Source of the DNA: an uncultured Steroidobacteraceae bacterium
Lineage (GTDB): Bacteria > Pseudomonadota > Gammaproteobacteria > Steroidobacterales > Steroidobacteraceae
Direction of reading: 5' to 3'
NCBI GenBank assembly: GCA_964600315.1
Contig: CAZRKS010000001.1
Span: 7,078 to 71,077, forward strand
Length of the DNA: 64,000 nt
Shown here: positions 9,165 through 34,946 of the stretch, piece by piece
How positions within the stretch are numbered: position 1 is the first letter of the stretch
How the letters are laid out: each line of letters starts with the position of its first letter
The notes under the pieces: model-generated
Database searches by the model: none
What the model saw: the letters and a program-made list of their open reading frames with translations, nothing else
Told to the model about the DNA's origin: nothing
Program-made: the position numbers and the translations under genes

Positions 9165-10040
9165 TCAGAACACCGGCAGCGGCAAACTCTTCACCGCCAC
9201 CTCACCGCCGACACGCTGCAGGTACTCGGCCTCGCCGCAGGCGACGTAGCGCTCGAAGTACTGCGCCCAGCCGCTCTGTTCCTTCGCGCTCGCGGCGTAC
9301 TCCTTGAAATGCCTGACGTCGAACCCGTAGAGCGGCGCACAGGAAGTCGGGTGTGCGCCACAGGGCGCGTGCACGACGCCGGTGGTCTGTGCGCGCTCCC
9401 AGAACACGTAGCGCGCCTCCTCGCCCTGCTCGAACACGGCCGGCTCGACCAGTTCGTCGCACGTGACGTACGTGCGCGTGGCCGCGCGCGCGTACAGATC
9501 GTCCATGTAGAGGTCCGGACCCTTGACCTGACAGACGCCGCGCGCATCGGCACGGTCCACGTGCAGCAGGGCGACGTCGAGCGGCAGCGCCGGCATCGCC
9601 ACCCACTGCCGGTCGTCGTAGGGCGAGTCGACGAGCTGGATTCCGGGGTTGTGCCGGAGCACGTCGGTGCCGAGCCCCACGCGCGTCGGTATGAACGGCA
9701 CGCGCATCGCCGCCGCCTTCAATCCGAGCAGGAGCAACCCTTCGTCGATCTCCATCACTTCGATCGACCCGGACTGGCGCGCGACGCGGAAGTAGGGTTC
9801 GAGCGGGATGAAGTCGAGCGACACGAAGGCGAAGACCAGCTTCTTCACCTTTCCGGCAGCGCACAGCATGCCGACGTCCGCGCCGCCGTAGGACACGAGG
9901 GTGAGATCCTCGAGCGGGCTGCGCAGGATCTCGCGGATGAGCGCCATCGGCTTGCGCCGCGGCCCCCAGCCGCCGATGCCGATGGTCATGCCGTCGCGCA
10001 GCTGCGCGACGACGTCGCTGGCAGTCATGAGCTTGTTCAT
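9165..10040 (-). CDS. ipdA: CoA-transferase subunit A (IpdA-like)
   Basis: 291 aa. MTIGIGGWGPRRKPMALIREI is a typical class I CoA-transferase alpha N-terminus. First gene of the minus-strand operon. Alternative start at MTASDVV (10028). Confidence 0.8.
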   Translation of the reverse strand: MNKLMTASDVVAQLRDGMTIGIGGWGPRRKPMALIREILRSPLEDLTLVSYGGADVGMLCAAGKVKKLVFAFVSLDFIPLEPYFRVARQSGSIEVMEIDEGLLLLGLKAAAMRVPFIPTRVGLGTDVLRHNPGIQLVDSPYDDRQWVAMPALPLDVALLHVDRADARGVCQVKGPDLYMDDLYARAATRTYVTCDELVEPAVFEQGEEARYVFWERAQTTGVVHAPCGAHPTSCAPLYGFDVRHFKEYAASAKEQSGWAQYFERYVACGEAEYLQRVGGEVAVKSLPLPVF

Positions 10041-10116
10041 TCGAAAGCCATCCAGGCCACGAGCGCATCCCGAAAGATGCCAGCTCGCTTTTTACGCGAT
10101 CAGGTGGTGGGTGGCG

Positions 10117-10136
10117 CTACGTCCTAAAGGACTAGG
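10117..10136. promoter_or_regulatory. operator-like palindrome CTACGTCC-TAAA-GGACTAGG
   Basis: 12/16 arm positions match CATCGTCC-N4-GGACGATG. Lies in the 285-nt divergent region between the ipdA-like gene (start 10040) and the SDR (start 10326). Confidence 0.4.
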
Positions 10137-10325
10137 ACCGGCAAGCATCGAGCGAAATTGCCTTGCAACTGAGACGCTTGCGCGGACGCAGCCTGCGGCG
10201 GACCCAGGTTGGGGCTGCTCCATTTGCCATTCGCTCAATCGTTCTCGCAAACTGACCTCAACCACCCCCGCCTGCCGAGGACTCGCGGCGGCCCGGTGGA
10301 CCCGCGCTACGGAGGCAGGAACGCA

Positions 10326-11135
10326 ATGACGAGGCTCGCCGGAAAGATCGCGATCGTGACGGGTGCCGCTCGCGGCATGGGGGCGGCGATTGCGCGCCGT
10401 TTTGCGGAGGAAGGGGCGACCGTCGCGCTGACCGATGTCCTGCCCGAGGTCGAAGCGACGGCCGCGGCGATCGGTCCGATGGCCACGGCCTACCGCCACG
10501 ACGTTACCGATGAATCCCGCTGGCAGGAAATCGTCGACGGCGTGATCGCGCGCCACGGCCGCATCGACGTGCTGGTCAACAACGCGGGCATCCTGATGTT
10601 CAAGGACCTGCTCACGACGACCGTCGCCGACCTGCGCAGGATCCTCGACGTCAACGCGGTGGGCACGTTCATCGGGATGCGCACCGTCGCGCCCCACATG
10701 ATCCGGCAGCGCAGCGGTTCCATCGTCAACAACTCGTCGTGCGACGGCATCTCACCGGCCAACTCGCTCATCGCCTATGCCAGCTCGAAGTTCGCCGTGC
10801 GCGGGATGACGAAGGTTGCCGCGCTCGAACTCGGCCCGCATGGCGTGCGCGTCAACTCGGTGCACCCCGGCAGCATCAACACCCCCATGGTGAACCCGCT
10901 GGGTGCACCCACCGACGCGCTCAACCGAGGAATGTCGTGGTACTCGGCACAGCGGGTCGGCGATCCCGTAGAGGCCGCCAACTGCTTCGTGTTCCTCGCC
11001 TCCGACGAGTCGAGCTTCTGCATGGGCACCGAGTTGGTCGTCGACGGCGGCCTCATCGCCGGTCACTATTACTACGGCCTGCCTGGTGCACCCGAAGGGG
11101 TCCTGCCGCCGATGCGGAAGCCTTCGGGAGAATAG
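10326..11135 (+). CDS. short-chain dehydrogenase/reductase (hydroxysteroid dehydrogenase-like)
   Basis: Track ORF trimmed to ATG 10326, with GGAGG 10 nt upstream. [30 protein letters not shown] and YASSK motifs. Confidence 0.85.
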
Positions 11136-24144: not shown

Positions 24145-24648
24145 ATGACCATGTCCAATCGAAGACACTTCATCATCTCGCAGCAGCTGACTCCGTTCGT
24201 CATCAACGGAGTCCTGAACGGCTGGATCGCCTGGGCCACGCACAAGAACCATCCCCCGGCGTCGCTCTGGGGGGCTCATGGCTACTGGTCCGATCTCGTG
24301 CTCACCGGCGTGCTGCTGCCCGGCATCACCTGGCTGATCCTCTGGCCGCTGATCCGCAAGCAGGCGGCCGCCGGCAAGGCCCCGGCAACGGACGGCGTTC
24401 CCGAGCCCTGGGCCCTGCGCTTCTTGCCGAGCACGCTGTGGGGCGGTTCCGCCGTGATCGGCATCCTCGGCGGATTGATCGGTCTCGTCGTCGCGGGAAT
24501 CATGCACGCCCTCGGAGCTCCCAGCCTGCCGGCGGCGAGCTACATGGTCTTCAAGGGCGTCTACGGCGGCATGCTCTCCGTGCTGCTGCAGCCGTCGATG
24601 GTCTTCGCCATTCTGCGATCCGTCCGAGCGGTTCCCGCGCGAGCCTGA
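24145..24648 (+). CDS. hypothetical integral membrane protein
   Basis: 167 aa with several hydrophobic spans (LVLTGVLLPGITWLILWPLI, AVIGILGGLIGLVVAGIMHAL, GGMLSVLLQPSMVFAIL). No family recognised. Confidence 0.5.
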   Translation: MTMSNRRHFIISQQLTPFVINGVLNGWIAWATHKNHPPASLWGAHGYWSDLVLTGVLLPGITWLILWPLIRKQAAAGKAPATDGVPEPWALRFLPSTLWGGSAVIGILGGLIGLVVAGIMHALGAPSLPAASYMVFKGVYGGMLSVLLQPSMVFAILRSVRAVPARA

Positions 24649-24671
24649 GCGACGGGCGGGAGACCGTCTCC

Positions 24672-25697
24672 ATGCGGGTGATGGTCACCGGATCGACCGG
24701 CTACGTCGGCGCCTTCAGCGTCAAGGCGCTCATCGACGCCGGCCACCGGGTCCGGTTGCTCGTGCGCGATCCCGCCAAGGCGGGAACCGTGCTTCGTGCC
24801 GTCGGGGTCAGCGGCCGGCTGGACTGCGTGCAGGGTGACATGACCGACGAAGCGTCGGTGCTGGAGGCCCTGAAGGGCTGCGACGCGGCACTGCACTGCG
24901 CGGCCGTGGTCAGCACGCACGCGTCGCGCGAGCAGGAAATGCTGCGCGCCAATCCGCAGGGTGCCGAGTTCGTGATCGGCCACGCCGTGCGCCTGGGGCT
25001 CGATCCGGTCATCCATTGCTCCAGCGTCACCGCCCTGCTGCGGCCGGGCGCCACGGTCCTCACGGCCGACATGCCGCCGGGCACGCTCACGCGCGGCTAC
25101 GCAGGTTCCAAGATCATCTGCGAGCAGTACGTGCGGACGCTGCAGAGCACGGGCGCGCCGGTCGTCATCACCTACCCCGGCAGCGTGACGGGTCCGGCTG
25201 CGTGGAGCATCCTCGGTGAAGCGACGCTGGGCGTGGCGGCGACCGTCCGCGCGGGCTTGCTGCCGACGCGCGAGGCGGCCCTTTCGATCATCGACGCGCG
25301 CGACCTCGGGGCCATACACGCCGCACTGATGACCCGCGGACGCGGCCCACGACGGATCCTGTGCGGCGGCCACTACCTGACTCCGGTGGACATCGCGCAG
25401 CGACTGCAGAATCTCACGGGGCGAAAGTTCCGCGTGCTGCCCGTGTCCGCCGCGCTGCTGCGCGGCGCTGGCCTGCTGTCCGACGCCGTTTCGCGCGCGC
25501 TGCCGCGGCTCGCCAACCCGTTCACGCACGAGGCCATGGTCTATTTCACGCAGTTACCGCCGACCGACGACTCCGCGGTGTGGCGTGAACTCGGCCTGCG
25601 TTACCGCGATGTCGAGGACACGCTGCGCGCGTCCATCCTCGCGGCGCGGGCCGCCGGTCTGCTGAGCGACGCTCAGATCGGCAAGCTGGCGTCTTGA
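24672..25697 (+). CDS. NAD-dependent epimerase/dehydratase-family (extended SDR, 3beta-HSD-like) protein
   Basis: Trimmed to ATG 24672, with GGGAGA upstream. MRVMVTGSTGYVGAF Rossmann motif and YAGSK catalytic motif. 341 aa. Confidence 0.8.
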   Translation: MRVMVTGSTGYVGAFSVKALIDAGHRVRLLVRDPAKAGTVLRAVGVSGRLDCVQGDMTDEASVLEALKGCDAALHCAAVVSTHASREQEMLRANPQGAEFVIGHAVRLGLDPVIHCSSVTALLRPGATVLTADMPPGTLTRGYAGSKIICEQYVRTLQSTGAPVVITYPGSVTGPAAWSILGEATLGVAATVRAGLLPTREAALSIIDARDLGAIHAALMTRGRGPRRILCGGHYLTPVDIAQRLQNLTGRKFRVLPVSAALLRGAGLLSDAVSRALPRLANPFTHEAMVYFTQLPPTDDSAVWRELGLRYRDVEDTLRASILAARAAGLLSDAQIGKLAS

Positions 25698-26692
25698 CGA
25701 TCCCGCCGCGGCCGTGCCGCGGCGCGCGGTTTCTGCCGGGACCGTCCCCGGGTCCGACCGGACCCTGTCGCACGCACCTTGCGCTTCCCCCCGGCCGTCG
25801 CCGCCTGCGTGGTTTCCCGCATGAATTCGCCCATCCGGGCGATTGCCGCCTTGGTCTCGGGCAGGAACGGCACCATGTGCCACACGTGCGGCACCTGGTC
25901 CCAGACCTCGACCCTGAAGTCCACGCCCTGCGCGACGGCGCGCTTCGCGACGCGACGCGTGTCGTCGAGCAGCACCTCGGTGCTGCCCACTTGCGCGAGG
26001 ACCGGCGGCAGCCCGTGAAAGTCGCCGAACACCGGCGAGACCAGCGGGTTGTCGTGCAGCGCGTCGTCGAGATAGAGCGCGTTCATCATCTTCATGCTCT
26101 TCGGCGACAGCATCGGGTCGCGACGCGCATTCGAGAACCGCGACTCGCCGCCGAAACTGAAGTCGGTGAACGGCGAGATCACGACCGCGCCGGCCGGCAT
26201 CGGGTCGCCGTCGTCCCGCAGCGCCAGCAGGGTCGACAGCGTCAGCCCGCCTCCGGCGGAGTCGCCGGCAATCACGATGCTCGCGGGGTCGGTCCCGAGG
26301 TCCAGCAGGTGGCGATAGGCCGCCAGGCAGTCCTCGAGCCCGGCCGGAAACGGGTGTTCGGGCGCCAGCCGGTAATGCACCAGCAGCGCCCGCGATCCTG
26401 CCGCCCGGCACACCCGTGCCACCATCAGCGGCACCTGCCCCGACGCCGGCAACATGAAGCCGCCGCCCGGCAGGTAGAGCAGGGTCATCGCATCGCTCGA
26501 CTCCCGCGTCCGTATCCATTCGCCGCGGAAGGCGTGAGCCGCCACCGGGGACATCTTCACTCCGGCCGGCAACCTCGGCCTGCCCCGCCCTTCGACGAAG
26601 CGCCGCGTCTCCTCGAGCGTGCTGTTGGTCATCATCCGCTTGACCGTGAAGTGCAGCACCAGGTTCAGGACCTTTGCCTGCCAGCTCGCCAT
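25673..26692 (-). CDS. alpha/beta hydrolase, HSL-family lipase/esterase with basic C-terminal tail
   Basis: 339 aa. LPGGGFM oxyanion region and GDSAGG nucleophile elbow. The last ~40 aa are Arg/Lys-rich (GGKRKVRATGSGRTRGRSRQKPRAAARPRRDR). The 3' end overlaps the convergent gene by 25 nt. Confidence 0.8.
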   Translation of the reverse strand: MASWQAKVLNLVLHFTVKRMMTNSTLEETRRFVEGRGRPRLPAGVKMSPVAAHAFRGEWIRTRESSDAMTLLYLPGGGFMLPASGQVPLMVARVCRAAGSRALLVHYRLAPEHPFPAGLEDCLAAYRHLLDLGTDPASIVIAGDSAGGGLTLSTLLALRDDGDPMPAGAVVISPFTDFSFGGESRFSNARRDPMLSPKSMKMMNALYLDDALHDNPLVSPVFGDFHGLPPVLAQVGSTEVLLDDTRRVAKRAVAQGVDFRVEVWDQVPHVWHMVPFLPETKAAIARMGEFMRETTQAATAGGKRKVRATGSGRTRGRSRQKPRAAARPRRDRQDASLPI

Positions 26693-26699
26693 CGTAACC

Positions 26700-27689
26700 T
26701 CACTTCGCCGGCGCCGTGCGCGCGGCTGACGGTCGCCGGGCCGGTCGCCTCAGCTTGCGGAAAGTCTCAAGCAGCTTCGCCGTGCGCGTCCCTGCCTGCC
26801 GGTAAGGCCGGCCCGCCGCCTTGAACGCCTCGGACCAGATATGCGCCAACTGCCGCGTGATGTCGCCTGACATCCTGGAATTGCGCGTGCAAGCCTCGCG
26901 GACCACCACGACGCGTCGGCGAAACGACTCGGCCCGACGCAGGTCGCGCATGAATTCCAGCTTGGCGCCGAGCGACTCGCGCTGGTGCCGCGACAAGCTC
27001 GCACTCGCCTTCGTCGCTCCGGCGAGCAACGCGCTGACGGCCTCGATCGCCGCGGCCGCCTCGACCCAGTTGGAGCGCGCGGCCTGCCGGCGACCGGCAT
27101 GGGGCGCAATGTCCTCGTGCCCGCGGAGCACCTCGAATTCGGCCGTGGCTTCCTCCCCGAACACCGGGTCCAGGATCGGCTTCATGTTCGCATCGATCTC
27201 GGCCCAGTCCGCGGACCTGAGCACCTGCCGGGCACGCGGGAAGGCCCGGAGTTCCTCGACGTCCATGTGCCGCCGCAGATGGCCGATATAGCGGTGTGCG
27301 CTCTTGCGCAGCGCGAAGGTGTCGGCGGTCCTGGGATCGGCACGGCAGCGGTCGATCAGCGCGAGCAGCTCGGCGCCCCGCGCCAGGATCTGCACGTGGT
27401 CCGCGAGCAAGTGCTCCACCTGCGGCGCGGAGGGCGGATCGCGCTCCACGAGCTTGCGGAAGACGAGGTCCTCCTTGGGGTGGTGGAAGCGGTCCGGGTA
27501 GTTGGTCATGTAGCGCATGACGCCGTGCATGACCTCGTAGTCGGGCTGCTTGCGCTGGTTGAGCAGGGCCACCTGCTTCTCCAGCAGCCTGAACACCCGC
27601 AGCTGGTAATGGTGCTCTTCGACCAGGGCCCGCAGGATGTCGGGCACCTCCAGAGCCTGTTTGCCACGTCCTCGTGCTGGGGTCGCCAT
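26700..27689 (-). CDS. hemerythrin-like domain protein with helical, basic C-terminal extension
   Basis: 329 aa, GAGGGAGA SD. The N-terminal ~190 aa carry His/Glu motifs typical of hemerythrin/HHE domains (EEHH, FHHPKED, LLADH, HLRRHMDVEE). The C-terminal ~140 aa match no family I recognise and end in KLRRPARRPSAARTAPAK. Confidence 0.75.
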   Translation of the reverse strand: MATPARGRGKQALEVPDILRALVEEHHYQLRVFRLLEKQVALLNQRKQPDYEVMHGVMRYMTNYPDRFHHPKEDLVFRKLVERDPPSAPQVEHLLADHVQILARGAELLALIDRCRADPRTADTFALRKSAHRYIGHLRRHMDVEELRAFPRARQVLRSADWAEIDANMKPILDPVFGEEATAEFEVLRGHEDIAPHAGRRQAARSNWVEAAAAIEAVSALLAGATKASASLSRHQRESLGAKLEFMRDLRRAESFRRRVVVVREACTRNSRMSGDITRQLAHIWSEAFKAAGRPYRQAGTRTAKLLETFRKLRRPARRPSAARTAPAK

Positions 27690-27716
27690 GGGGTCTCCCT
27701 CGTTCAGCCTCTGCCG

Positions 27717-28175
27717 TCAGCCGCGGGTGCTCCGGCGCCTGCCCGCTGGCTTCCTGTTGACCGGGCGCGTCCCCGCGGCCCGCCGTTGCGGTTCGGCGCG
27801 CGCGAGCAGGCGATCGACCTTGTCGCGCAGCTCGGCCATGTCCTCGCCGGTCGGCACGCCCAGGCGCATCAAGACCGCCATGACCCGCTCGTCGAACACG
27901 CCCTGCAATCGCCCTTGGGACGGCAAGCCCATCATTCTGCTCGGCGACCCGGTCCAGTCACTCCAGACCTTGCGGGCCACCTCGTGCAGTTCCGGCTCCA
28001 GCCTGCGGCCTTCTGCGACGAGGGTCCTGAAGTCCGCCCGGGCCCGGTTCCTGTCGGCCCCGTTGGCACGGTTCAGGGACGCCAGCCCGGCGAGGACGAC
28101 GTCGTGGGACGACTCCCGGACGCGCGAAAGCCAGGCGTCGGATTCGGCCTTCGTGCGGATCTTTCGGCTCGGCAT
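27717..28175 (-). CDS. phasin-like granule-associated protein (PhaI/PhaF N-domain type)
   Basis: 152 aa, GGAGAAATC SD. VVLAGLASLNRA...FRTLVAEGRRLE...VFDERVMAVLMRLGVPTGEDMAELRDKVDRL matches the pattern I recall for Pseudomonas PhaI/PhaF (WLAGLGAY...FDxRVxxxLxRLGxPSxxDxxxL). Basic tail. Confidence 0.7.
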   Translation of the reverse strand: MPSRKIRTKAESDAWLSRVRESSHDVVLAGLASLNRANGADRNRARADFRTLVAEGRRLEPELHEVARKVWSDWTGSPSRMMGLPSQGRLQGVFDERVMAVLMRLGVPTGEDMAELRDKVDRLLARAEPQRRAAGTRPVNRKPAGRRRSTRG

Positions 28176-28244
28176 GATTTCTCCGGTGCTCGCAGATGGG
28201 AATGCCCGATTCAGACCCTAGGCCCCGGGATTAGAGCAATCAAC

Positions 28245-28937
28245 TCAGGTACTTCCCGCAAGCTGCGGCAGGTAGCGGCGCGCCACGCGCCGGAACTCCT
28301 CCTGCTTCGGGCCTCGAAGGTAAGGGGTGACCAGCGACATCACCTGGAAGACTCCTTGCGAGAGCGCGTCGTCGTCGACCAGGGCCGGTCCGGCACCCAC
28401 CGGGCGCTGCAGGGCTCGAAAGTTCAGCCAGTAGGTCGTCAAGAGCGAGATGTTGGTCGCCAGCGCGCGCGCCTCGTCCGGCGTCGCATCGAGCGAGCCG
28501 GAGGTGACGAGCGCCCGGCAGTAGGCGCTCAGGCGGGAAACGCCGGACTCGAGACCGCGCAGGAAGCGCCGGCGCAGCACTGGATACGCCGAGCACAGTT
28601 CGCTCAGGTCGCGGTGAATGAACTGGTAGTCCTGGATCACCTCGAACGACAGGTGCAACAGCAGCCACAGGTCGTCGACAGCCTGCCGGTAGCCGGCGTC
28701 GTCGCCGGTGACCTCCGCGACGGCGCCCTGGTAGCGCTCGAACAGCGCCATGACGATGTCTTCCTTGTGGCGGAAGTGATAGTAGAGGTTGCCCGGGCTG
28801 ATCCCGGCCGCATCGGCGACGTGATTGGTGGTGACGTGCGGCACGCCTCGTTCGTTGAACAGGGCCAGCGCCGCCGCCAGGATGCGCTCGCGGGTCTGGG
28901 TCGCTCCGCGCCTCGCGGCAGGCTCGCGCGGCTTCAC
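28245..28937 (-). CDS. TetR/AcrR-family transcriptional regulator
   Basis: GTG start 28937, overlapping the WS/DGAT stop (GTGA). HTH segment RERILAAALALFNERGVPHVTTNHVADAAGISPGNLYYHF. Confidence 0.85.
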   Translation of the reverse strand: MKPREPAARRGATQTRERILAAALALFNERGVPHVTTNHVADAAGISPGNLYYHFRHKEDIVMALFERYQGAVAEVTGDDAGYRQAVDDLWLLLHLSFEVIQDYQFIHRDLSELCSAYPVLRRRFLRGLESGVSRLSAYCRALVTSGSLDATPDEARALATNISLLTTYWLNFRALQRPVGAGPALVDDDALSQGVFQVMSLVTPYLRGPKQEEFRRVARRYLPQLAGST

Positions 28938-30433
28938 GCGCGGGCCCGTCGCTTCGCTGCCTTGCGTGGTGTCGCGGCGCGGGGCGACCTGAGGCCCATG
29001 GCCTTCTCGAGGATCGCGAGTTCCTCGCCGGCATACACGGCGATCCGCTGCGGGCTCGGGCAGAGATCGGGACAGGCCAGGATGCCCATGTCCAGGCTGG
29101 CGCCGAAATTGCTCACCGTGATGTTCAGCGCCTGGCCCGCCAGCAGCAGCGAAGTCGCATACATCGCCTCGAGCCGCGCGCCGTTGACGTACTGAGTCTC
29201 GCGCGGTCCGGGCACGTTGGAGATCACGAGGTTGGCATTGAGCACCTTGTGCGCGAACGTCGTCTTCGCCGCGAGAATCTGCGGGATCATCGCCAGCTGG
29301 GTGTAATTCTGGTAAGTGTCCGCGTCGAGCTCGTGCATGAGCCCCTTGTTGGCGCGGCTCGAGGCAACGACGGCCAGCAGGCGTCGCCGGGGGTTGGCGA
29401 TTTCGGTTCCGAGCGACACCAGGATCTGGCCGACCGCATTGCCGCTGGCCGCGTCATCGGCGCGCTCGCGCGCCACCGGGCAGGCGGCGATCAGCGGCTT
29501 CTCCGGCAGTGCACGCTGCTCCTTCAGGTAGCGGCGCAACGCGCCGCCACAGACGGCCAGCAGGACCTCGTTCACCGTGGCGCCGCCGGGCACGGCCGCG
29601 CCGATCGCCTTCATGCGATCGATCGACAGCGACACCGTGCCGAGCCGCCGGCGCGCGGTCAGCGTGCCGTTCAGGATCGTCGCCGGCGCCGAATACGGAG
29701 CGATCTTGCCCCCACCGGATTTGCCGAGGCTCAGCTCGCCCACCTTCTGCAGCGCCGTGCCCCAGGAGGCGAGCGCCTGCAGGGTGCTCGTCTGCGGGAC
29801 CGGCACCTTCTTTTTGGCCGGTGCTTTCGCGGCGCGGGCGCGCAACTGCTTCAGGTCGACCGCCCAGACCGGCGGCATCCCTCGCGCCGCGGGATCGGTC
29901 GAGCGGATGTACCGGCTGAGTTCCATGCCCCGCTTGCCGTCGAACTGCGAGTGGTGGAGCTTGGTGTAGATCGCGAAGCGCCCGCCCTCCAGCCCCTCGA
30001 TCAGGTGCATCTCCCACAGCGGGCGGCTGCGGTCGAGACGGTTCACGTGCAGGCGCGCAACGAGTTCGCCGAGTTCACGCTGGCCGCCGGGACGCGGCAG
30101 GGCGTGCAGGTAGATGTGTTCGTCGACGTTCACCTTGTCGAGCTTGGCCCAGGCCCGGAACGGCTTGGGTTTGCCGCCGCCGAGCACGCGTGGCCGCAGC
30201 TTGCCCAGCAGCGACTTGCGCTTCGGCTCCGGTGCGACCGTCACGAGCTTGTAGTTGAAAGGCTCGGCCCGCACCGGCGACTTGCGCAGGTAGGCGTGCA
30301 GCTGCTGGAGGTAGTCGCGTCCCGCCCCCTCCGGCAAATCGTAGATCTCCAGTCCGCCGATGTGCGTCGGCGCCGCGACAGTGTCGGAGTCGAGGAAATA
30401 TTCGTCCTGCCGGTTCAGTCGTTGGAAGGCCAT
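28934..30433 (-). CDS. wax ester synthase/acyl-CoA:diacylglycerol acyltransferase (WS/DGAT), paralog 1
   Basis: 499 aa. Active-site HHxxxDG motif (KLHHSQFDGKRG) and N-terminal APTHIGGL typical of WS/DGAT. Basic C-terminal tail. Confidence 0.9.
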   Translation of the reverse strand: MAFQRLNRQDEYFLDSDTVAAPTHIGGLEIYDLPEGAGRDYLQQLHAYLRKSPVRAEPFNYKLVTVAPEPKRKSLLGKLRPRVLGGGKPKPFRAWAKLDKVNVDEHIYLHALPRPGGQRELGELVARLHVNRLDRSRPLWEMHLIEGLEGGRFAIYTKLHHSQFDGKRGMELSRYIRSTDPAARGMPPVWAVDLKQLRARAAKAPAKKKVPVPQTSTLQALASWGTALQKVGELSLGKSGGGKIAPYSAPATILNGTLTARRRLGTVSLSIDRMKAIGAAVPGGATVNEVLLAVCGGALRRYLKEQRALPEKPLIAACPVARERADDAASGNAVGQILVSLGTEIANPRRRLLAVVASSRANKGLMHELDADTYQNYTQLAMIPQILAAKTTFAHKVLNANLVISNVPGPRETQYVNGARLEAMYATSLLLAGQALNITVSNFGASLDMGILACPDLCPSPQRIAVYAGEELAILEKAMGLRSPRAATPRKAAKRRARA

Positions 30434-30445
30434 GGCCTCGCCCCC

Positions 30446-31846
30446 CTATGGCTTCGAAACACGTGCATGGGCACCGCGCGCCGCGCGACCCCTCGCGCGC
30501 GGCTTCAGCTCGAGCGCCGCCTCCAGCTCACGCAGCGCGACCGGCAGCTGCAGCGCCAGGTACTGCACGCTCGGCAGCGTGTCGGGGCAGGCGACGAGGC
30601 CGAAATGCAGGTGCTTGCGATAGCTCAGCACCGTGATGTTGAGCCGCTGGTCCCCCGACAACACTGACAGCGGGTACATGCCGTCGACCTCGGCGCCCCG
30701 GAAATACAGTCGTTGCATCGGTCCCGGCACGTTGGAGATCGTTAGGTTGGTGAACGCCGCCCGATCGGGATCCGTGTTCTCGCGCTTCGGGACCATCATC
30801 ATGAGCTGCATGCCGACGGAATTGACCGCCTTGTGCAGCGACATGGGCATGACCTGGAATTCCTCTTTGGCCGCGCGCATTTCCTTGCGAATGGCCAGCA
30901 ATCGCTTGCGGGGGTCGCGCTGCTGCGTCGCGATCGCGGTGTGGATGCTGGCGACGGAACTGCCGTGCGTGTCGCCCGCGGGGCGCGGCAGCGCGACCGG
31001 CACCGTGGCGAGCAGGCTGTCCTTCGGGATGCGGTCACATTTCGCGAGGTAAGCGCGCAGCGCACCGCTGCAGACCGCCAGCACGACGTCGTTGACCGTG
31101 GCGTTCGCCGCACGGGCGACGGCCTTGATGCGCGGCAGGCTCAAGTCCTGCGTGGCGAGGCGCCGCCGGCTGGTGCTGCTCCCGTTCAGCACGCACCGGG
31201 GTCCGCGCGGGATCAGCGGCACGTCGCGCGAACGCGCCCGCGATCCGCCGACGTTGCGCAGCAACTCCGCGAAGAACCGGCGCCAGTCCTCGTCGGCCGA
31301 CTGCGTCGCCCGGACGGTCACGCGGGCCCTGCGCGGTGTCGACCACGGCGGCAGACTCGGGCTGCGCGGCGACTCGCCGAGGGCGCCCGCGACCTTGTTG
31401 ATCAGCCCGATCCCGTCGCCCAGGGAGTGGTGGACCTTGAGGTACAGCGCGAAACGGTCGGGCCGCAGGCCTTCGATCAGCGTGCACTCCCACAGCGGGC
31501 GCGAACGCTCGAGGGGCAGCGAATGCAGGCGCGAGATCGCAAGCCCCAACTCGCGCTGGCCGCCCGGCCACGGCAACGCCTCGTGGCGCAGGTGGTACTC
31601 GAGGTCGACGTGTTCGGCCGCCTCCAGCGCGGGCGAGTACTTGCCGAGGCCCCGCTTCTCCACGAGCCGCAGGTTGAACGGCTCGCTGTCCACGGCGCAG
31701 CGCGCGAGCTTCGCGTGCAGTTCCTGCATGAAGTCGGGCGACGCCCCCTTCGGCAGCCTGCAGGTCATCAGGAGCCCGATGTGCATCGGGGCCTCGGGGG
31801 TTTCGAGTCGCAGGAACAAGGCGTCCTGCGTGCTGAGCTTGACCAT
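30446..31846 (-). CDS. WS/DGAT acyltransferase, paralog 2
   Basis: Trimmed to ATG 31846, with AGGAGAA upstream (MVKLSTQDALFLRLETPEAPMHIG). HHSLGDG motif. 466 aa. Confidence 0.9.
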   Translation of the reverse strand: MVKLSTQDALFLRLETPEAPMHIGLLMTCRLPKGASPDFMQELHAKLARCAVDSEPFNLRLVEKRGLGKYSPALEAAEHVDLEYHLRHEALPWPGGQRELGLAISRLHSLPLERSRPLWECTLIEGLRPDRFALYLKVHHSLGDGIGLINKVAGALGESPRSPSLPPWSTPRRARVTVRATQSADEDWRRFFAELLRNVGGSRARSRDVPLIPRGPRCVLNGSSTSRRRLATQDLSLPRIKAVARAANATVNDVVLAVCSGALRAYLAKCDRIPKDSLLATVPVALPRPAGDTHGSSVASIHTAIATQQRDPRKRLLAIRKEMRAAKEEFQVMPMSLHKAVNSVGMQLMMMVPKRENTDPDRAAFTNLTISNVPGPMQRLYFRGAEVDGMYPLSVLSGDQRLNITVLSYRKHLHFGLVACPDTLPSVQYLALQLPVALRELEAALELKPRARGRAARGAHARVSKP

Positions 31847-31984
31847 CGGCTCTGATTCTCCTGCAGGGGCCGGTTCTGCCGCCGGCACTCGTGAGCGATG
31901 ACACGGCCGGGCCCGACCGTCGAGTCGGCGTTCCGGCCTCGCCAGCGTCGCAGGCAGGACTGCTGCGCTCATCCCCCGTTCAGA

Positions 31985-33469
31985 CTACCGGCGCCGCGCA
32001 GCGCCGCGTCCGGGGCTGGTCGGCCGGGCGGCCCGGCGCGAGCCTGAGCCGGTCGTACGCCGGCCGGCGAGCGCCCGCTCGAGTTCGTCGAGTGACTCCA
32101 GGATGAGCCCGCCGACCCGCCGCGGATCCGGGAGCAGATCCGGACAGACCAGCACGGCCACGTCGAGCATGTTCCGGCGGCTGATCACGGTGATGTTCAT
32201 CGCCTGTCCCGGCACGAGCAGCGACATCGGGTAGTCCGCCTCGATCAGGGCCCCGTTCGAATAGCGCTTCTCGCGCAGGCCCACGACGTTCGAGATCACG
32301 ACGTTGTGGGCGTGCGCCTTCTCGGCCCGGCCGAAAATCGTGAACAGGATGTAGGGCAGGCCGATCAGGCCCATGTAGATGTTGAGCGCCGTGGGCGACG
32401 GCAGGCCGTGGATCAGTTCCTTCGCGTGCTGGCTCGACGAGCGCACGGCCTCGAAGCGCCGCACGGGATCCTTGAGATGCGTCGCGAGCGAAACCTGGCC
32501 GGACGCAATCGCATTGCCGCCGGCCTGGCCGCCGGCCCGGGTCACGGCGACGATCATGTTGGCGACCAGCGCCTCCTTCGGCAACGCGTGCCGCCCGAGC
32601 AGATAGCGGCGGAGCGCGGCGCCGCAGATGGCCATCACGACGTCGTTGATCGTCGCGCCCTGGGACCTGGCCAGCCGCTTGAGGCGCGACAGCGGGAGCC
32701 GCGTGACACCGATCTCGCGCTGGGCCGTGACCTTGCCATTGAGGATGCTGTCGGGTGCGCGGTAGATCGGCACCAGGCCGCCGTCGGTCGGATGCCGATA
32801 CGAGTCGATCACCCGGCCGAACGCGGTGCCGAGTTCGCTCACGACCTCGACGCCGTCGCTCACGCCGGCGCGGCCGCGTTCCAGCCAGCCGCGCGCGGGT
32901 TCCGCGCTCCGCCCGCCCCGCTTCGTCGCCGCCGCTTCGCTCCTCTCCTCCATGGTCACGCCCCAGAACGGCAGCAGCCCGCGTTCGTCGGGGTCCGCGC
33001 TGGTGGTCTCGCGGTAGAGCCGCATGCCCCACTGGCCATCGACGTACGCGTGATGGATGCGCGAGAAGGTTGCGTACCGGTTGCCAGGGAGGCCCTCGAT
33101 CAGGTGGTGCTCCCACAGCGGCCGCGAGCGGTCGAGCAGCCCGGAGTTGAGGCGCGAAACGAGTTCGAACAGTTCGTTCTCCGTCCCCGGCCACGGCAAC
33201 GCGTGATGGAAGATGTGCCTGCGAAGGTCGACCGCGTCGAGGACCTTCCAGCCAGGGATACCCGGCAGCGGCCCGCTCGCCGTGTACAGGTAGTTGAAAG
33301 GCGCGCCGTTCGCAGGGATGTTCATCAGCTGATCGCGCAGCTTGCGCACGTAGTCGCGACCCGCGCCGGGCGGCTTGCGCAGGATCTGCACGCCGGCGAC
33401 GTGCATCGGCGTCTCGGGCGACTCCATCGTCAGCATCATGATGTCCATCGGATTCATCGACTTCAGCAT
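31985..33469 (-). CDS. WS/DGAT acyltransferase, paralog 3
   Basis: Trimmed to ATG 33469 (MLKSMNPMDIMMLTMESPETPMHVAG). HHAYVDG motif. 494 aa. Close paralog of the next gene. Confidence 0.9.
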   Translation of the reverse strand: MLKSMNPMDIMMLTMESPETPMHVAGVQILRKPPGAGRDYVRKLRDQLMNIPANGAPFNYLYTASGPLPGIPGWKVLDAVDLRRHIFHHALPWPGTENELFELVSRLNSGLLDRSRPLWEHHLIEGLPGNRYATFSRIHHAYVDGQWGMRLYRETTSADPDERGLLPFWGVTMEERSEAAATKRGGRSAEPARGWLERGRAGVSDGVEVVSELGTAFGRVIDSYRHPTDGGLVPIYRAPDSILNGKVTAQREIGVTRLPLSRLKRLARSQGATINDVVMAICGAALRRYLLGRHALPKEALVANMIVAVTRAGGQAGGNAIASGQVSLATHLKDPVRRFEAVRSSSQHAKELIHGLPSPTALNIYMGLIGLPYILFTIFGRAEKAHAHNVVISNVVGLREKRYSNGALIEADYPMSLLVPGQAMNITVISRRNMLDVAVLVCPDLLPDPRRVGGLILESLDELERALAGRRTTGSGSRRAARPTSPGRGAARRR

Positions 33470-33530
33470 CGCTGCAAACCTCCCGCTGCCTGACCTCTTC
33501 CCCGGCTCCTCGCAACACCGGCACCCGATC

Positions 33531-34946
33531 CTACCGCTTCCTGGCGAGCGCCCGTTCGAGCTCGTCCAGCGATTCCGCGATGGCCTCGCCGACACGCTGC
33601 GGACCGGGGACCACGCTCGGGCAGACGAGCACGGCCACGTCGAGCATGTTCGCGCGGCTGATGACCGTGATGTTCATCGCCTGGCCCGGCACGAGCAGCG
33701 ACATCGGGTAGTCGGACTCGACCAGCGCCCCGTTGACGTAGCGCCTTTCGCGAAGGCCGATGAGGTTGGAGATGACGACGTTCTGGGCCCGCGCCCTGTC
33801 GGCCCGGCCCAGGATCGTGTAGAGCGCGAACGGCACGCCGGTCAGGCCCATATAGAGGTTGAGCGCCGTCGGCGAGGCCATGCCGTGGATGTGGTCCTTC
33901 GCGCGCCGGCTCGACGAGCGCACGGCCTCGAAACGCTTGACCGGGTCCCTGAGGTGGGTCGCCAGCGACACCTGCGCGGCCGCAACGGCGTTGCCGGCGC
34001 TCGCGCCCTGCTGACGTGCGACGGCCACGATCATGCCCGCGATCAGCGCCTGCTTGGGCAGGGCGTCGCGCTCCAGCAGGTAGCGCCGCAGGCCGCCGCC
34101 GCAGATGGCCAGCACGACGTCGTTGACCGTCGCACCGTGCGCCCGGGCCAGCCGCTTGATGCGCGCCAGCTCGAATTGCGTGACGCCGATCTCGCGTCGC
34201 GCGGTGACCTTGCTGTTCAGGATGCAGAGCGGCGCCTGGTAGATCGGCACGAGGCCGCCGTCCGTCGGATGCCGGCGCGCTTCGAACAGGTGGCCGAATG
34301 CGGCGCCCAGTTCGGTCACGGCCTCGACGCCTTGATCGAGGCCGGCGCGGCCCCGTTCCAGCCAGCCCGGCGTGGGCGGCCCGCCGCGCGGGGAAGCCCT
34401 CTTCGGCGTCGCAGCGGGCTTCTCGTGGATTTCCACGGCCCAGTACGGCAGCAGCCCGCGGACGTTCGGGTCCGGACTGGTGGTCGCCTCGTGCAGCTTC
34501 ATGCCCCACTGGCCGTCGATCAGCGCGTGGTGCACGCGCATGAACGTGGCATAGCGCTGCCCCGCGAGACCCTCGATCAGGTGGTATTCCCAGAGGGGCC
34601 GCGAGCGATCGAGGTGACTCGAGTTGAGGCGCGAGACGAGCTCGAACAGTTCCGCCTGCGTCCCTGGCCAGGGCAGCGCGTGGTGGAAGACGTGCTCCCG
34701 GAGGTCGACCTCGTCCAGCACTTGCCACGCGGGCACGCCCGGCACCAGCCCGCTGGCGGCGTACCGATAGTTGAAGGGGGCGGCGCGCGCCGGGATGCGC
34801 AGCAGCTGGTCGCGCAGCTTGCGCACGTAATCGCGGCCTGCGCCGCGGGGTTTGCGCAGGATTTGCACGCCACCGATGTGCATCGGCGTTTCCGGTGACT
34901 CCATCGCCAGCAGCATGGCGTCCAGCAGGTTCATCGATTTCAGCAT
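33531..34946 (-). CDS. WS/DGAT acyltransferase, paralog 4
   Basis: 471 aa (MLKSMNLLDAMLLAMESPETPMHIGG). HHALIDG motif. First gene of the minus-strand string. Confidence 0.9.
   Translation of the reverse strand: MLKSMNLLDAMLLAMESPETPMHIGGVQILRKPRGAGRDYVRKLRDQLLRIPARAAPFNYRYAASGLVPGVPAWQVLDEVDLREHVFHHALPWPGTQAELFELVSRLNSSHLDRSRPLWEYHLIEGLAGQRYATFMRVHHALIDGQWGMKLHEATTSPDPNVRGLLPYWAVEIHEKPAATPKRASPRGGPPTPGWLERGRAGLDQGVEAVTELGAAFGHLFEARRHPTDGGLVPIYQAPLCILNSKVTARREIGVTQFELARIKRLARAHGATVNDVVLAICGGGLRRYLLERDALPKQALIAGMIVAVARQQGASAGNAVAAAQVSLATHLRDPVKRFEAVRSSSRRAKDHIHGMASPTALNLYMGLTGVPFALYTILGRADRARAQNVVISNLIGLRERRYVNGALVESDYPMSLLVPGQAMNITVISRANMLDVAVLVCPSVVPGPQRVGEAIAESLDELERALARKR

Follow-up and report, generated by a model that had tools for sequence, protein, structure and literature searches.

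The hemerythrin gene and its operon

The window analyzed here is a 64,000-nt stretch of DNA from an uncultured Steroidobacteraceae bacterium (contig CAZRKS010000001.1). The gene of interest is the open frame at 26700-27689 on the minus strand, which encodes a 329-aa hemerythrin-like protein with a long C-terminal extension. We refer to this protein as P0001. Its gene lies directly upstream of the gene for a lipase or esterase of the hormone-sensitive lipase (HSL) family, P0090, and in other bacteria relatives of the two proteins are joined in a single polypeptide.

Since the window is about 70% GC, it contains many long spurious open reading frames (ORFs), and GC content by codon position was used to check whether a gene is real. 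The frame at 26700-27689 is free of stops, and its translation is the 329-aa protein quoted in an earlier note on this DNA. Its GC content at the first, second and third codon positions is 0.72, 0.48 and 0.88, a pattern typical of the real genes in the window. An AGGGAG-type Shine-Dalgarno sequence is found 5' of the ATG. About 60 full-length homologues, 317-375 aa in length, are present in metagenomes and metagenome-assembled genomes (MAGs). The frame at 26700-27689 is a real gene.

P0001 belongs to an operon in which all genes lie on one strand, in the order four wax ester synthase/diacylglycerol acyltransferases (WS/DGATs), TetR, phasin, P0001 and HSL-family lipase, with intergenic gaps of -4 to 69 nt. 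The four tandem WS/DGAT genes (WSD1 to WSD4) span 28934-34946 on the minus strand (33531-34946, 31985-33595, 30446-31972 and 28934-30433), and PF03007 and PF06974 are both matched in all four. Genes for a fatty acyl-CoA reductase and an acyl-CoA synthetase are located just upstream of this operon. The TetR-family regulator (230 aa; 28245-28937, minus strand; GC at third codon positions 0.87) matches PF00440 and PF13972 and is conserved in related loci (L081-L084). It is followed by a PhaI/PhaF-type phasin (152 aa; 27717-28175, minus strand; PF05597, E=1.7e-13), which keeps the same position in relatives. The lipase gene, which encodes the inferred partner of P0001, is at 25673-26692 on the minus strand and its product matches Abhydrolase_3 (PF07859, E=9.5e-51). 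The earlier note had placed the hemerythrin gene between a phasin and a lipase, downstream of four WS/DGATs, and the Pfam matches and coordinates agree with this placement. The TetR gene between WSD4 and the phasin was absent from that description.

The junction between the hemerythrin and lipase genes (26690-26706, minus strand) was read directly in the sequence. The TGA of P0001 lies inside the GAGG Shine-Dalgarno sequence of the lipase, 5 nt before the lipase ATG. The intergenic gap is 7 nt and the two genes are in different frames. At the orthologous loci L081/L082, and at L124 and L125, the hemerythrin stop overlaps the lipase start. A scan of 25300-29100 for promoters and terminators found nothing exceeding shuffled sequences.

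The hemerythrin-like domain

The N-terminal module of P0001 is an HHE-type hemerythrin-like domain (residues 16-178; 27156-27644, minus strand), predicted to fold as a four-helix bundle with two additional short helices. Pfam Hemerythrin (PF01814) matches residues 18-153 at 43.1 bits, compared to a cut-off of 25.3 (E=7.1e-11), and the same family was matched in 55 of 55 homologues. In the AlphaFold2 (AF2) model, which was made with the family alignment, the helices of the domain span residues 17-44, 51-83, 85-117 and 124-156 with predicted local distance difference test scores (pLDDT) above 90. The model as a whole has a mean pLDDT of 85 and a predicted template modeling score (pTM) of 0.57, and at this pTM the relative arrangement of the two modules of P0001 is undefined.

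In the 55 full-length homologues, H26, H69, H70, E73, D74, H98, H132, H141, D143 and E145 are invariant. The ligand pattern among them is H26, H69xxxE73, H98 and H141xxxE145 (H...HxxxE...H...HxxxE). This pattern is of the HHE type, and it is conserved in the fused clades as well. The invariance of the ligand set suggests a working metal site rather than a degenerate scaffold, and we infer that P0001 binds iron. The canonical signature of hemerythrins and bacteriohemerythrins is H-HxxxE-HxxxH-HxxxxD, with five His, one Glu and one Asp (PMC9388753). P0001 departs from this O2-binding signature in having L102 after H98 and H141xxxE145 in helix 4. Since its ligand set is of the HHE type and not the five-His type, O2 is only one candidate signal. 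The hemerythrin/HHE-type His and Glu motifs that the earlier note had recognized in the N-terminal part are thus borne out by the family match above the cut-off, the invariant ligands and the predicted four-helix bundle.

A Foldseek search with the model matched the N-terminal module only. The best matches were the hemerythrin-like structures 2p0n (template modeling score 0.80, root-mean-square deviation 2.8 Å) and 3cax, and the hemerythrin domain of FBXL5 was a lower-ranked, non-significant match (E=1.0 and above). Apolipophorin-III, found at rank 34, was dismissed as a meaningless match. A profile search of PDB sequences with P0001 returned no hemerythrin at E≤1.

The putative partner lipase

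The lipase P0090 carries the elements of a Ser-Asp-His triad, with GDSAGG as nucleophile motif, the aspartate in LLDD and the histidine in PHVW, all of which are invariant in the fusions described below. Its N-terminus, MASWQA, contains the invariant SWQ that opens the lipase part of those fusions. The oxyanion-hole motif HGGG of family IV/HSL is absent. In its place both the window lipase and the fusions have PGGG (LYLPGGGF), and this replacement is conserved across split and fused members of the lipase clade. The best NCBIfam subfamily for P0090 was GESAG_HSLs, at 242.6 bits against a cut-off of 430, and the LipY model gave a weak match of 58.5 bits against a cut-off of 450. Pfam also matches Say1_Mug180 (steryl acetyl hydrolase) in the lipase clade. 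The lipase may act on a steryl or wax ester instead of triacylglycerol.

Hemerythrin and lipase occur as fused and split pairs

The hemerythrin clade of P0001 is fused to the lipase clade of P0090 in dozens of protein clusters. In Halieaceae genomes such as those of Parahaliea maris and Haliea sp. E17, Hemerythrin and Abhydrolase_3 are encoded in one ORF of 618-688 aa, separated by a middle region of about 150 aa, and this ORF usually adjoins a WS/DGAT. In a search with P0090, the orthologues (at least 62% identity) stand alone. The tier below them, near 50% identity, consists largely of PF01814+PF07859 fusions that are 558-594 aa long. Approximately 45 such fusions were among the 120 matches listed, and two of the three fusions inspected from this tier are flanked by WS/DGATs. 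Public annotation of the fusions includes "alpha/beta hydrolase fold domain-containing", and NCBIfam has no curated model covering either P0001 or the fusions.

A second copy of this arrangement is found in the same genome on another contig. A fused Hemerythrin+Abhydrolase_3 gene at L089:3056-5278 (minus strand; open frame up to 740 aa) lies directly upstream of a fifth WS/DGAT (L089:1425-2999, minus strand). A carboxylesterase of the COesterase family diverges from this fusion at L089:5248-7146.

All inspected unfused members of the lipase clade have a hemerythrin-plus-extension gene directly upstream, with stop and start overlapping or nearly so. The unfused lipases P0162 and P0208, both from the tier near 50% identity, are examples. 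In both cases the gene just upstream encodes a hemerythrin protein of 317-318 aa, its stop overlaps the lipase start, and WS/DGAT genes adjoin the pair. One of these hemerythrin proteins is 52% identical to the fused protein P0178 over 254 residues, linker included. In at least 14 pairs of window-type hemerythrin and lipase homologues, the longest contig has the same length for both, which indicates 1:1 co-occurrence.

In every fused and split form compared, the lipase part begins at a conserved SWQA motif, and the fission point is constant, just before the SWQA helix of the lipase. In a maximum-likelihood tree of 78 lipase domains, at least three changes between fused and split states fall on well-supported branches, and parsimony gives seven; some of the rows scored as split in this tree may be truncated gene calls, and those verified as real are the window clade, the P0162 clade and P0208. 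The window clade is the sister of a fused clade with a long linker. Repeated fusion and fission at a constant break point are a classical sign that two proteins are parts of one functional unit.

The extension of P0001 lies where the linker lies in the fusions, between the hemerythrin domain and the SWQA N-terminus of the lipase. The two are equivalent in position only. A profile-profile comparison (hhalign) of the extension with the linkers and extensions of other clades reached 95% probability only if it took in DPVFG, the shared end of the hemerythrin domain, and this candidate for homology was rejected. A different architecture was seen at L015, L019, L024 and L026, from uncultured Gammaproteobacteria/Cellvibrionales. 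There, a hemerythrin protein of about 350 aa (approximately 9914-10963, plus strand) has a different, non-homologous C-terminal extension, and a related lipase is found about 860 bp further downstream.

The C-terminal extension and basic tail

Beyond the hemerythrin domain, P0001 consists of three regions, all on the minus strand. A flexible connector (residues 179-203; 27081-27155) has pLDDT values of 56-71 and a mean pairwise identity of 35%. It leads into a family-specific helical hairpin (residues 204-297; 26799-27080), and the protein ends in an Arg/Lys-rich tail (residues 298-329; 26703-26798). AF2 places helices at 201-252 and 256-297, with pLDDT above 90 over residues 230-290, followed by a short helix and a disordered tail. 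Mean pairwise identity is 41-44% in the extension (approximately residues 196-329) compared to 67% in the hemerythrin domain, so the extension is the faster-evolving part. When the extension alone was searched with phmmer against 1.8 billion representative proteins, only its own family was found.

Despite this divergence, E210, A211-A213, E216, G224, H235, N243, R259, N270, W285, P295 and Y296 are near-invariant. In an antiparallel hairpin turning at about residue 254, A211-A213 and G224 would face Y296 and W285. This pattern of conserved small and aromatic residues would fit a specifically packed hairpin. The helix at 263-300 has a hydrophobic moment of 0.5-0.6, and an Ala-rich hydrophobic stretch lies at residues 206-226.

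The net charge is +20 over residues 196-329 and +9 over residues 301-329. In the 55 family members the mean tail charge is +4.2, and it is at least +4 in 32. The earlier note had described the C-terminal region as helical with a basic end, and this description stands: the region is conserved over about 135 aa, helical in AF2 and strongly positive. Arg/Lys-rich tails are found on six proteins of the operon, WSD2, WSD3, WSD4, the phasin, P0001 and the lipase, with 8-14 Lys or Arg in the last 40 residues; WSD1 and TetR have no such tail. At the second locus both the fused protein and the WS/DGAT have them, and they also occur in Parahaliea. In Rhodococcus, the lysine-rich C-terminus of MLDS tethers lipid droplets to DNA (PMC5504291). 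By analogy, the shared tails may localize the proteins of the operon and may be a signal for the lipid inclusion or the nucleoid. In Parahaliea maris, a WS/DGAT-like protein encoded upstream of the fused hemerythrin-lipase (L021:8067-9824, plus strand) ends in roughly 100 residues of Ala/Lys/Pro repeats, a tail that resembles the histone-H1-like DNA-binding tail of PhaF.

The earlier note had also called the extension phasin-like. As a claim of homology, this did not survive comparison with phasins themselves. Phasin_2 (PF09361) matches the window extension at 14.8 bits, below the cut-off of 24.9. Sub-threshold matches to this family were found in 11 of the 55 members, with a best E-value of 1.7e-4, and none of the 55 reached the Pfam cut-off. 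When the extension was compared by hhalign to 30 genuine Phasin_2 domains from same-order genomes, P was 0.13, while the reversed control gave 0.044 and the score was within the range of column shuffles. Phasin homology was rejected, and the likeness is one of general character only. The near-invariant polar and aromatic residues also set the extension apart from a generic amphipathic coat. It may still attach to lipid surfaces by its amphipathic helices and basic tail.

Distribution and neighboring genes

The order of two to four WS/DGATs, TetR, phasin, hemerythrin-extension protein and lipase is kept in MAGs of Steroidobacteraceae and of Ideonella and Rubrivivax (Burkholderiales). WS/DGAT genes repeatedly flank hemerythrin-lipase modules, both fused and split. 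Stand-alone members of the hemerythrin clade, which are 190 aa in length, have unrelated neighbors. This suggests that only the extended and fused forms are linked to lipids. Of 400 same-class genomes drawn evenly, 34 carried the clade, and nearly all of its members there were stand-alone proteins of about 200 aa. The hemerythrin-lipase module is rare and patchy.

Other arrangements of the hemerythrin domain were also seen. The short stand-alone form occurs in tandem duplicates in three alphaproteobacterial MAGs (L041, L046 and L076). The genome that contains the window also encodes, at L090:555-2213 (minus strand), a hemerythrin domain joined to a universal-stress-protein (Usp) domain; this gene has a long Arg-rich N-terminal open frame and its true start is uncertain.

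Within the operon, there is a 65-nt overlap (33531-33595) between the longest ORFs of WSD1 and WSD2, and the start of WSD2 is probably downstream of 33595. The TetR start overlaps the WSD4 stop by 4 nt. On the other side of the lipase, two plus-strand genes converge on it: an NAD-dependent epimerase-like gene at approximately 24650-25697, which overlaps the 3' end of the lipase (25673) by about 25 nt, and a gene at 24145-24648 whose hydrophobic 167-aa product matches no Pfam family. At other loci, including Rubrivivax, the lipase is followed by the same pair, an epimerase/NAD_binding_4 protein and a protein of 165-172 aa with no family.

A candidate sensor subunit for the lipase

We propose that P0001 serves the HSL-family lipase, whose gene begins 7 nt downstream, as a non-catalytic, di-iron (HHE-type) sensor or regulatory subunit, and we give this reading a probability of roughly 0.55. 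Based on the sequence comparisons, P0001 and P0090 appear to be a split version of the hemerythrin-linker-lipase protein of Halieaceae, other proteobacteria and the second locus of the same genome. The chimeric hemerythrins characterized in bacteria sense O2 or redox state and drive the output domain attached to them (PMC9388753). Together with the complete ligand set in split and fused forms and the fusions themselves, this argues for a sensor or regulatory subunit. The earlier note had suggested that the di-iron domain could couple storage-lipid synthesis or mobilization to oxygen or iron status. That idea is kept here in altered form: the fusions, the translational coupling and the WS/DGAT flanks strengthen the link to mobilization, and the reading of the extension as a phasin relative is dropped.

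In the mechanism that we propose, changes in O2, redox, nitric oxide (NO) or iron supply would alter the di-iron center, be it in oxidation state, in ligand state or in metal occupancy. This change would be relayed to the lipase through the helical arm (residues 204-297); the hairpin, as a spacer or docking arm, would stand in for the covalent linker. The basic tail, found on five other proteins of the operon as well, would probably recruit the pair to the lipid inclusion or to the nucleoid surface. The stored products of the neighboring WS/DGATs, wax esters or triacylglycerols, would then be hydrolyzed only when the freed fatty acids could be respired. Because fatty acids from stores are useful only if they are respired, gating by O2 or redox would be physiologically sensible. 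In this scheme we infer that the two proteins form a complex, and likewise the signal, the direction of its effect on the lipase and the lipid that is hydrolyzed.

Several results weigh against this proposal. The HxxxH and HxxxxD of O2-binding hemerythrins are missing, which makes O2 binding by P0001 uncertain on sequence grounds. Without the DPVFG end, hhalign of the extension against the linkers of other clades was non-significant (P=0.08). The same comparison by hidden Markov model search with reversed decoys and by pairwise shuffles was also non-significant, and global runs found nothing. An AF2 model of a fused relative has no confident interface between hemerythrin and lipase (linker pLDDT below 50, pTM 0.55). 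Some sources name relatives of the lipase acetyl esterase, lipase or (monoterpene) epsilon-lactone hydrolase. Finally, the operon is patchy within the genus, with a full-length window-type orthologue in only one of 24 other same-genus genomes.

One alternative, which we consider unlikely, is that the extension binds the surface of lipid inclusions as a phasin-like amphipathic region, so that P0001 would be a surface-resident di-iron sensor of storage-lipid metabolism in general and would not act through the lipase specifically. The high hydrophobic moment of helix 263-300, the Ala-rich stretch, the +20 charge and the genuine phasin gene next door all suit such a role. The same type of basic tail on the phasin, three WS/DGATs and the lipase suits it as well, as does the tethering of MLDS to DNA by a basic C-terminus in Rhodococcus (PMC5504291). 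Phasin_2 was also commoner below threshold than any other spurious family. However, Phasin_2 stayed below the Pfam cut-off in every member and did no better than its reversed control. Any helical hairpin is expected to be amphipathic, and the near-invariant polar residues, together with the complementary A211-A213 and G224 versus W285 and Y296, indicate that it has a specific fold or interface. The fusions tie the hemerythrin domain to the lipase itself, and the split relatives h124 and h125 have no basic tails.

The remaining alternatives give the hemerythrin domain a different job. It could be catalytic or protective, acting as a di-iron oxidase, oxygenase, peroxidase or catalase on freed lipids or reactive species at the inclusion, in series with the lipase. 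Two enzymes of one pathway are commonly fused, H70, D74, H132 and D143 are invariant beyond the minimal ligand set, and some hemerythrin-like proteins have catalytic activities such as catalase (mentioned in PMC9388753). We nevertheless regard this as quite improbable, since our literature search found no precedent for a lipid-oxidizing hemerythrin, stand-alone relatives of the same clade occur in unrelated contexts, and the module has no conserved reductase partner at the inspected loci. Similarly low odds apply to P0001 as a dedicated steric chaperone or scaffold of the lipase, in the spirit of the Lif foldases found beside family I lipases, with the hemerythrin fold being structural only. 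An all-helical partner, adjacent to the lipase gene and translationally coupled to it, and a fission point always just before the SWQA helix would be in keeping with a foldase. But this leaves the invariant full metal-ligand set unexplained in split and fused forms, and Pfam scans of the whole protein and of the extension found Hemerythrin only and no Lif or foldase family. In addition, Lif foldases are periplasmic, and P0001-type proteins have no signal peptide or membrane anchor. Finally, P0001 could be a hemerythrin-like protein of the ordinary stand-alone kind, working in O2 or iron buffering or in Fe-S repair, with its place beside the lipase incidental. Most clade members in the even same-class sample are indeed stand-alone proteins of about 200 aa, but the repeated fusion, the tight coupling with one lipase clade and the cross-order synteny effectively exclude this explanation. 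A sensor or regulatory subunit of the lipase is therefore the reading that we carry forward.

Comparison to known systems and significance

FBXL5 is an iron- and O2-dependent switch. Its hemerythrin domain (3v5x), NMB1532 (2p0n) and PF0695 (3cax) share the hemerythrin-like fold with P0001, and the latter two are its best structural matches. Unlike P0001, none of the three has a helical hairpin or a link to a lipase, and identity is only 10-18%.

On the lipase side, LipY of Mycobacterium tuberculosis is an HSL-family lipase that mobilizes stored triacylglycerol and is modulated by a non-catalytic N-terminal PE module. The mycobacterial link between oxygen and lipid mobilization is transcriptional. 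The fusions resemble LipY in being HSL-family lipases with a non-catalytic N-terminal module (for context, PMC3121879 and PMC6572852), but the NCBIfam match is far under its cut-off and the PE domain of LipY is not a metalloprotein.

Among chimeric hemerythrins, DcrH (with a methyl-accepting chemotaxis protein, MCP), Bhr-DGC, Bhr-HD-GYP and the hemerythrin-like domain of P1B-5-ATPase have the same layout as the fused relatives, a four-helix di-iron sensor and an output (PMC9388753). The characterized outputs in this 2022 review are MCP, cyclic di-GMP (c-di-GMP) enzymes and P-type ATPase, and lipase is unmentioned (PMC9388753). The system described here differs from these sensors in that its output is an alpha/beta-hydrolase lipase, in that sensor and output are separate polypeptides in the window, and in its motif of H-HxxxE-H-HxxxE instead of H-HxxxE-HxxxH-HxxxxD. 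We class it as a hemerythrin sensor with a new output, a lipase, present here in split form.

P0001 and its operon also share features with phasins and the structural proteins of lipid droplets. PhaP/Phasin_2, PhaI/PhaF, Rhodococcus MLDS and TadA have helical amphipathic regions and basic C-terminal tails, like P0001 (PMC5504291, PMC6176652). As in phasin systems, a regulator is found beside the storage-polymer genes, with the TetR-phasin pair just upstream of P0001. Unlike P0001, phasins have no metal domain, and its extension has no detected homology to them and has near-invariant polar residues. A literature search found no paper linking a hemerythrin with a lipase, wax ester, WS/DGAT or lipid droplets.

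The control of stored wax-ester and triacylglycerol use in bacteria is poorly understood, and the known controls are mostly transcriptional. More tentatively than for P0001 itself, we suggest that hemerythrin-lipase proteins, fused or split, might form a so far unrecognized class of metalloprotein-gated lipases in which a di-iron sensor switches wax-ester or triacylglycerol hydrolysis post-translationally by O2, redox, NO or iron. The fused gene has cultured carriers, Parahaliea maris and Haliea sp. E17, so this hypothesis is testable now. A switchable lipase may also be of use for engineering oleaginous bacteria. If the hypothesis is true, lipase would join chemotaxis, c-di-GMP turnover and metal transport among the known outputs of hemerythrin sensors, and the hemerythrin-lipase pair would be the first direct sensor-to-lipase control of neutral-lipid mobilization in bacteria. 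Mobilization of the stored lipid would then depend on whether the electron acceptor that beta-oxidation requires is available, or on iron or nitrosative stress.

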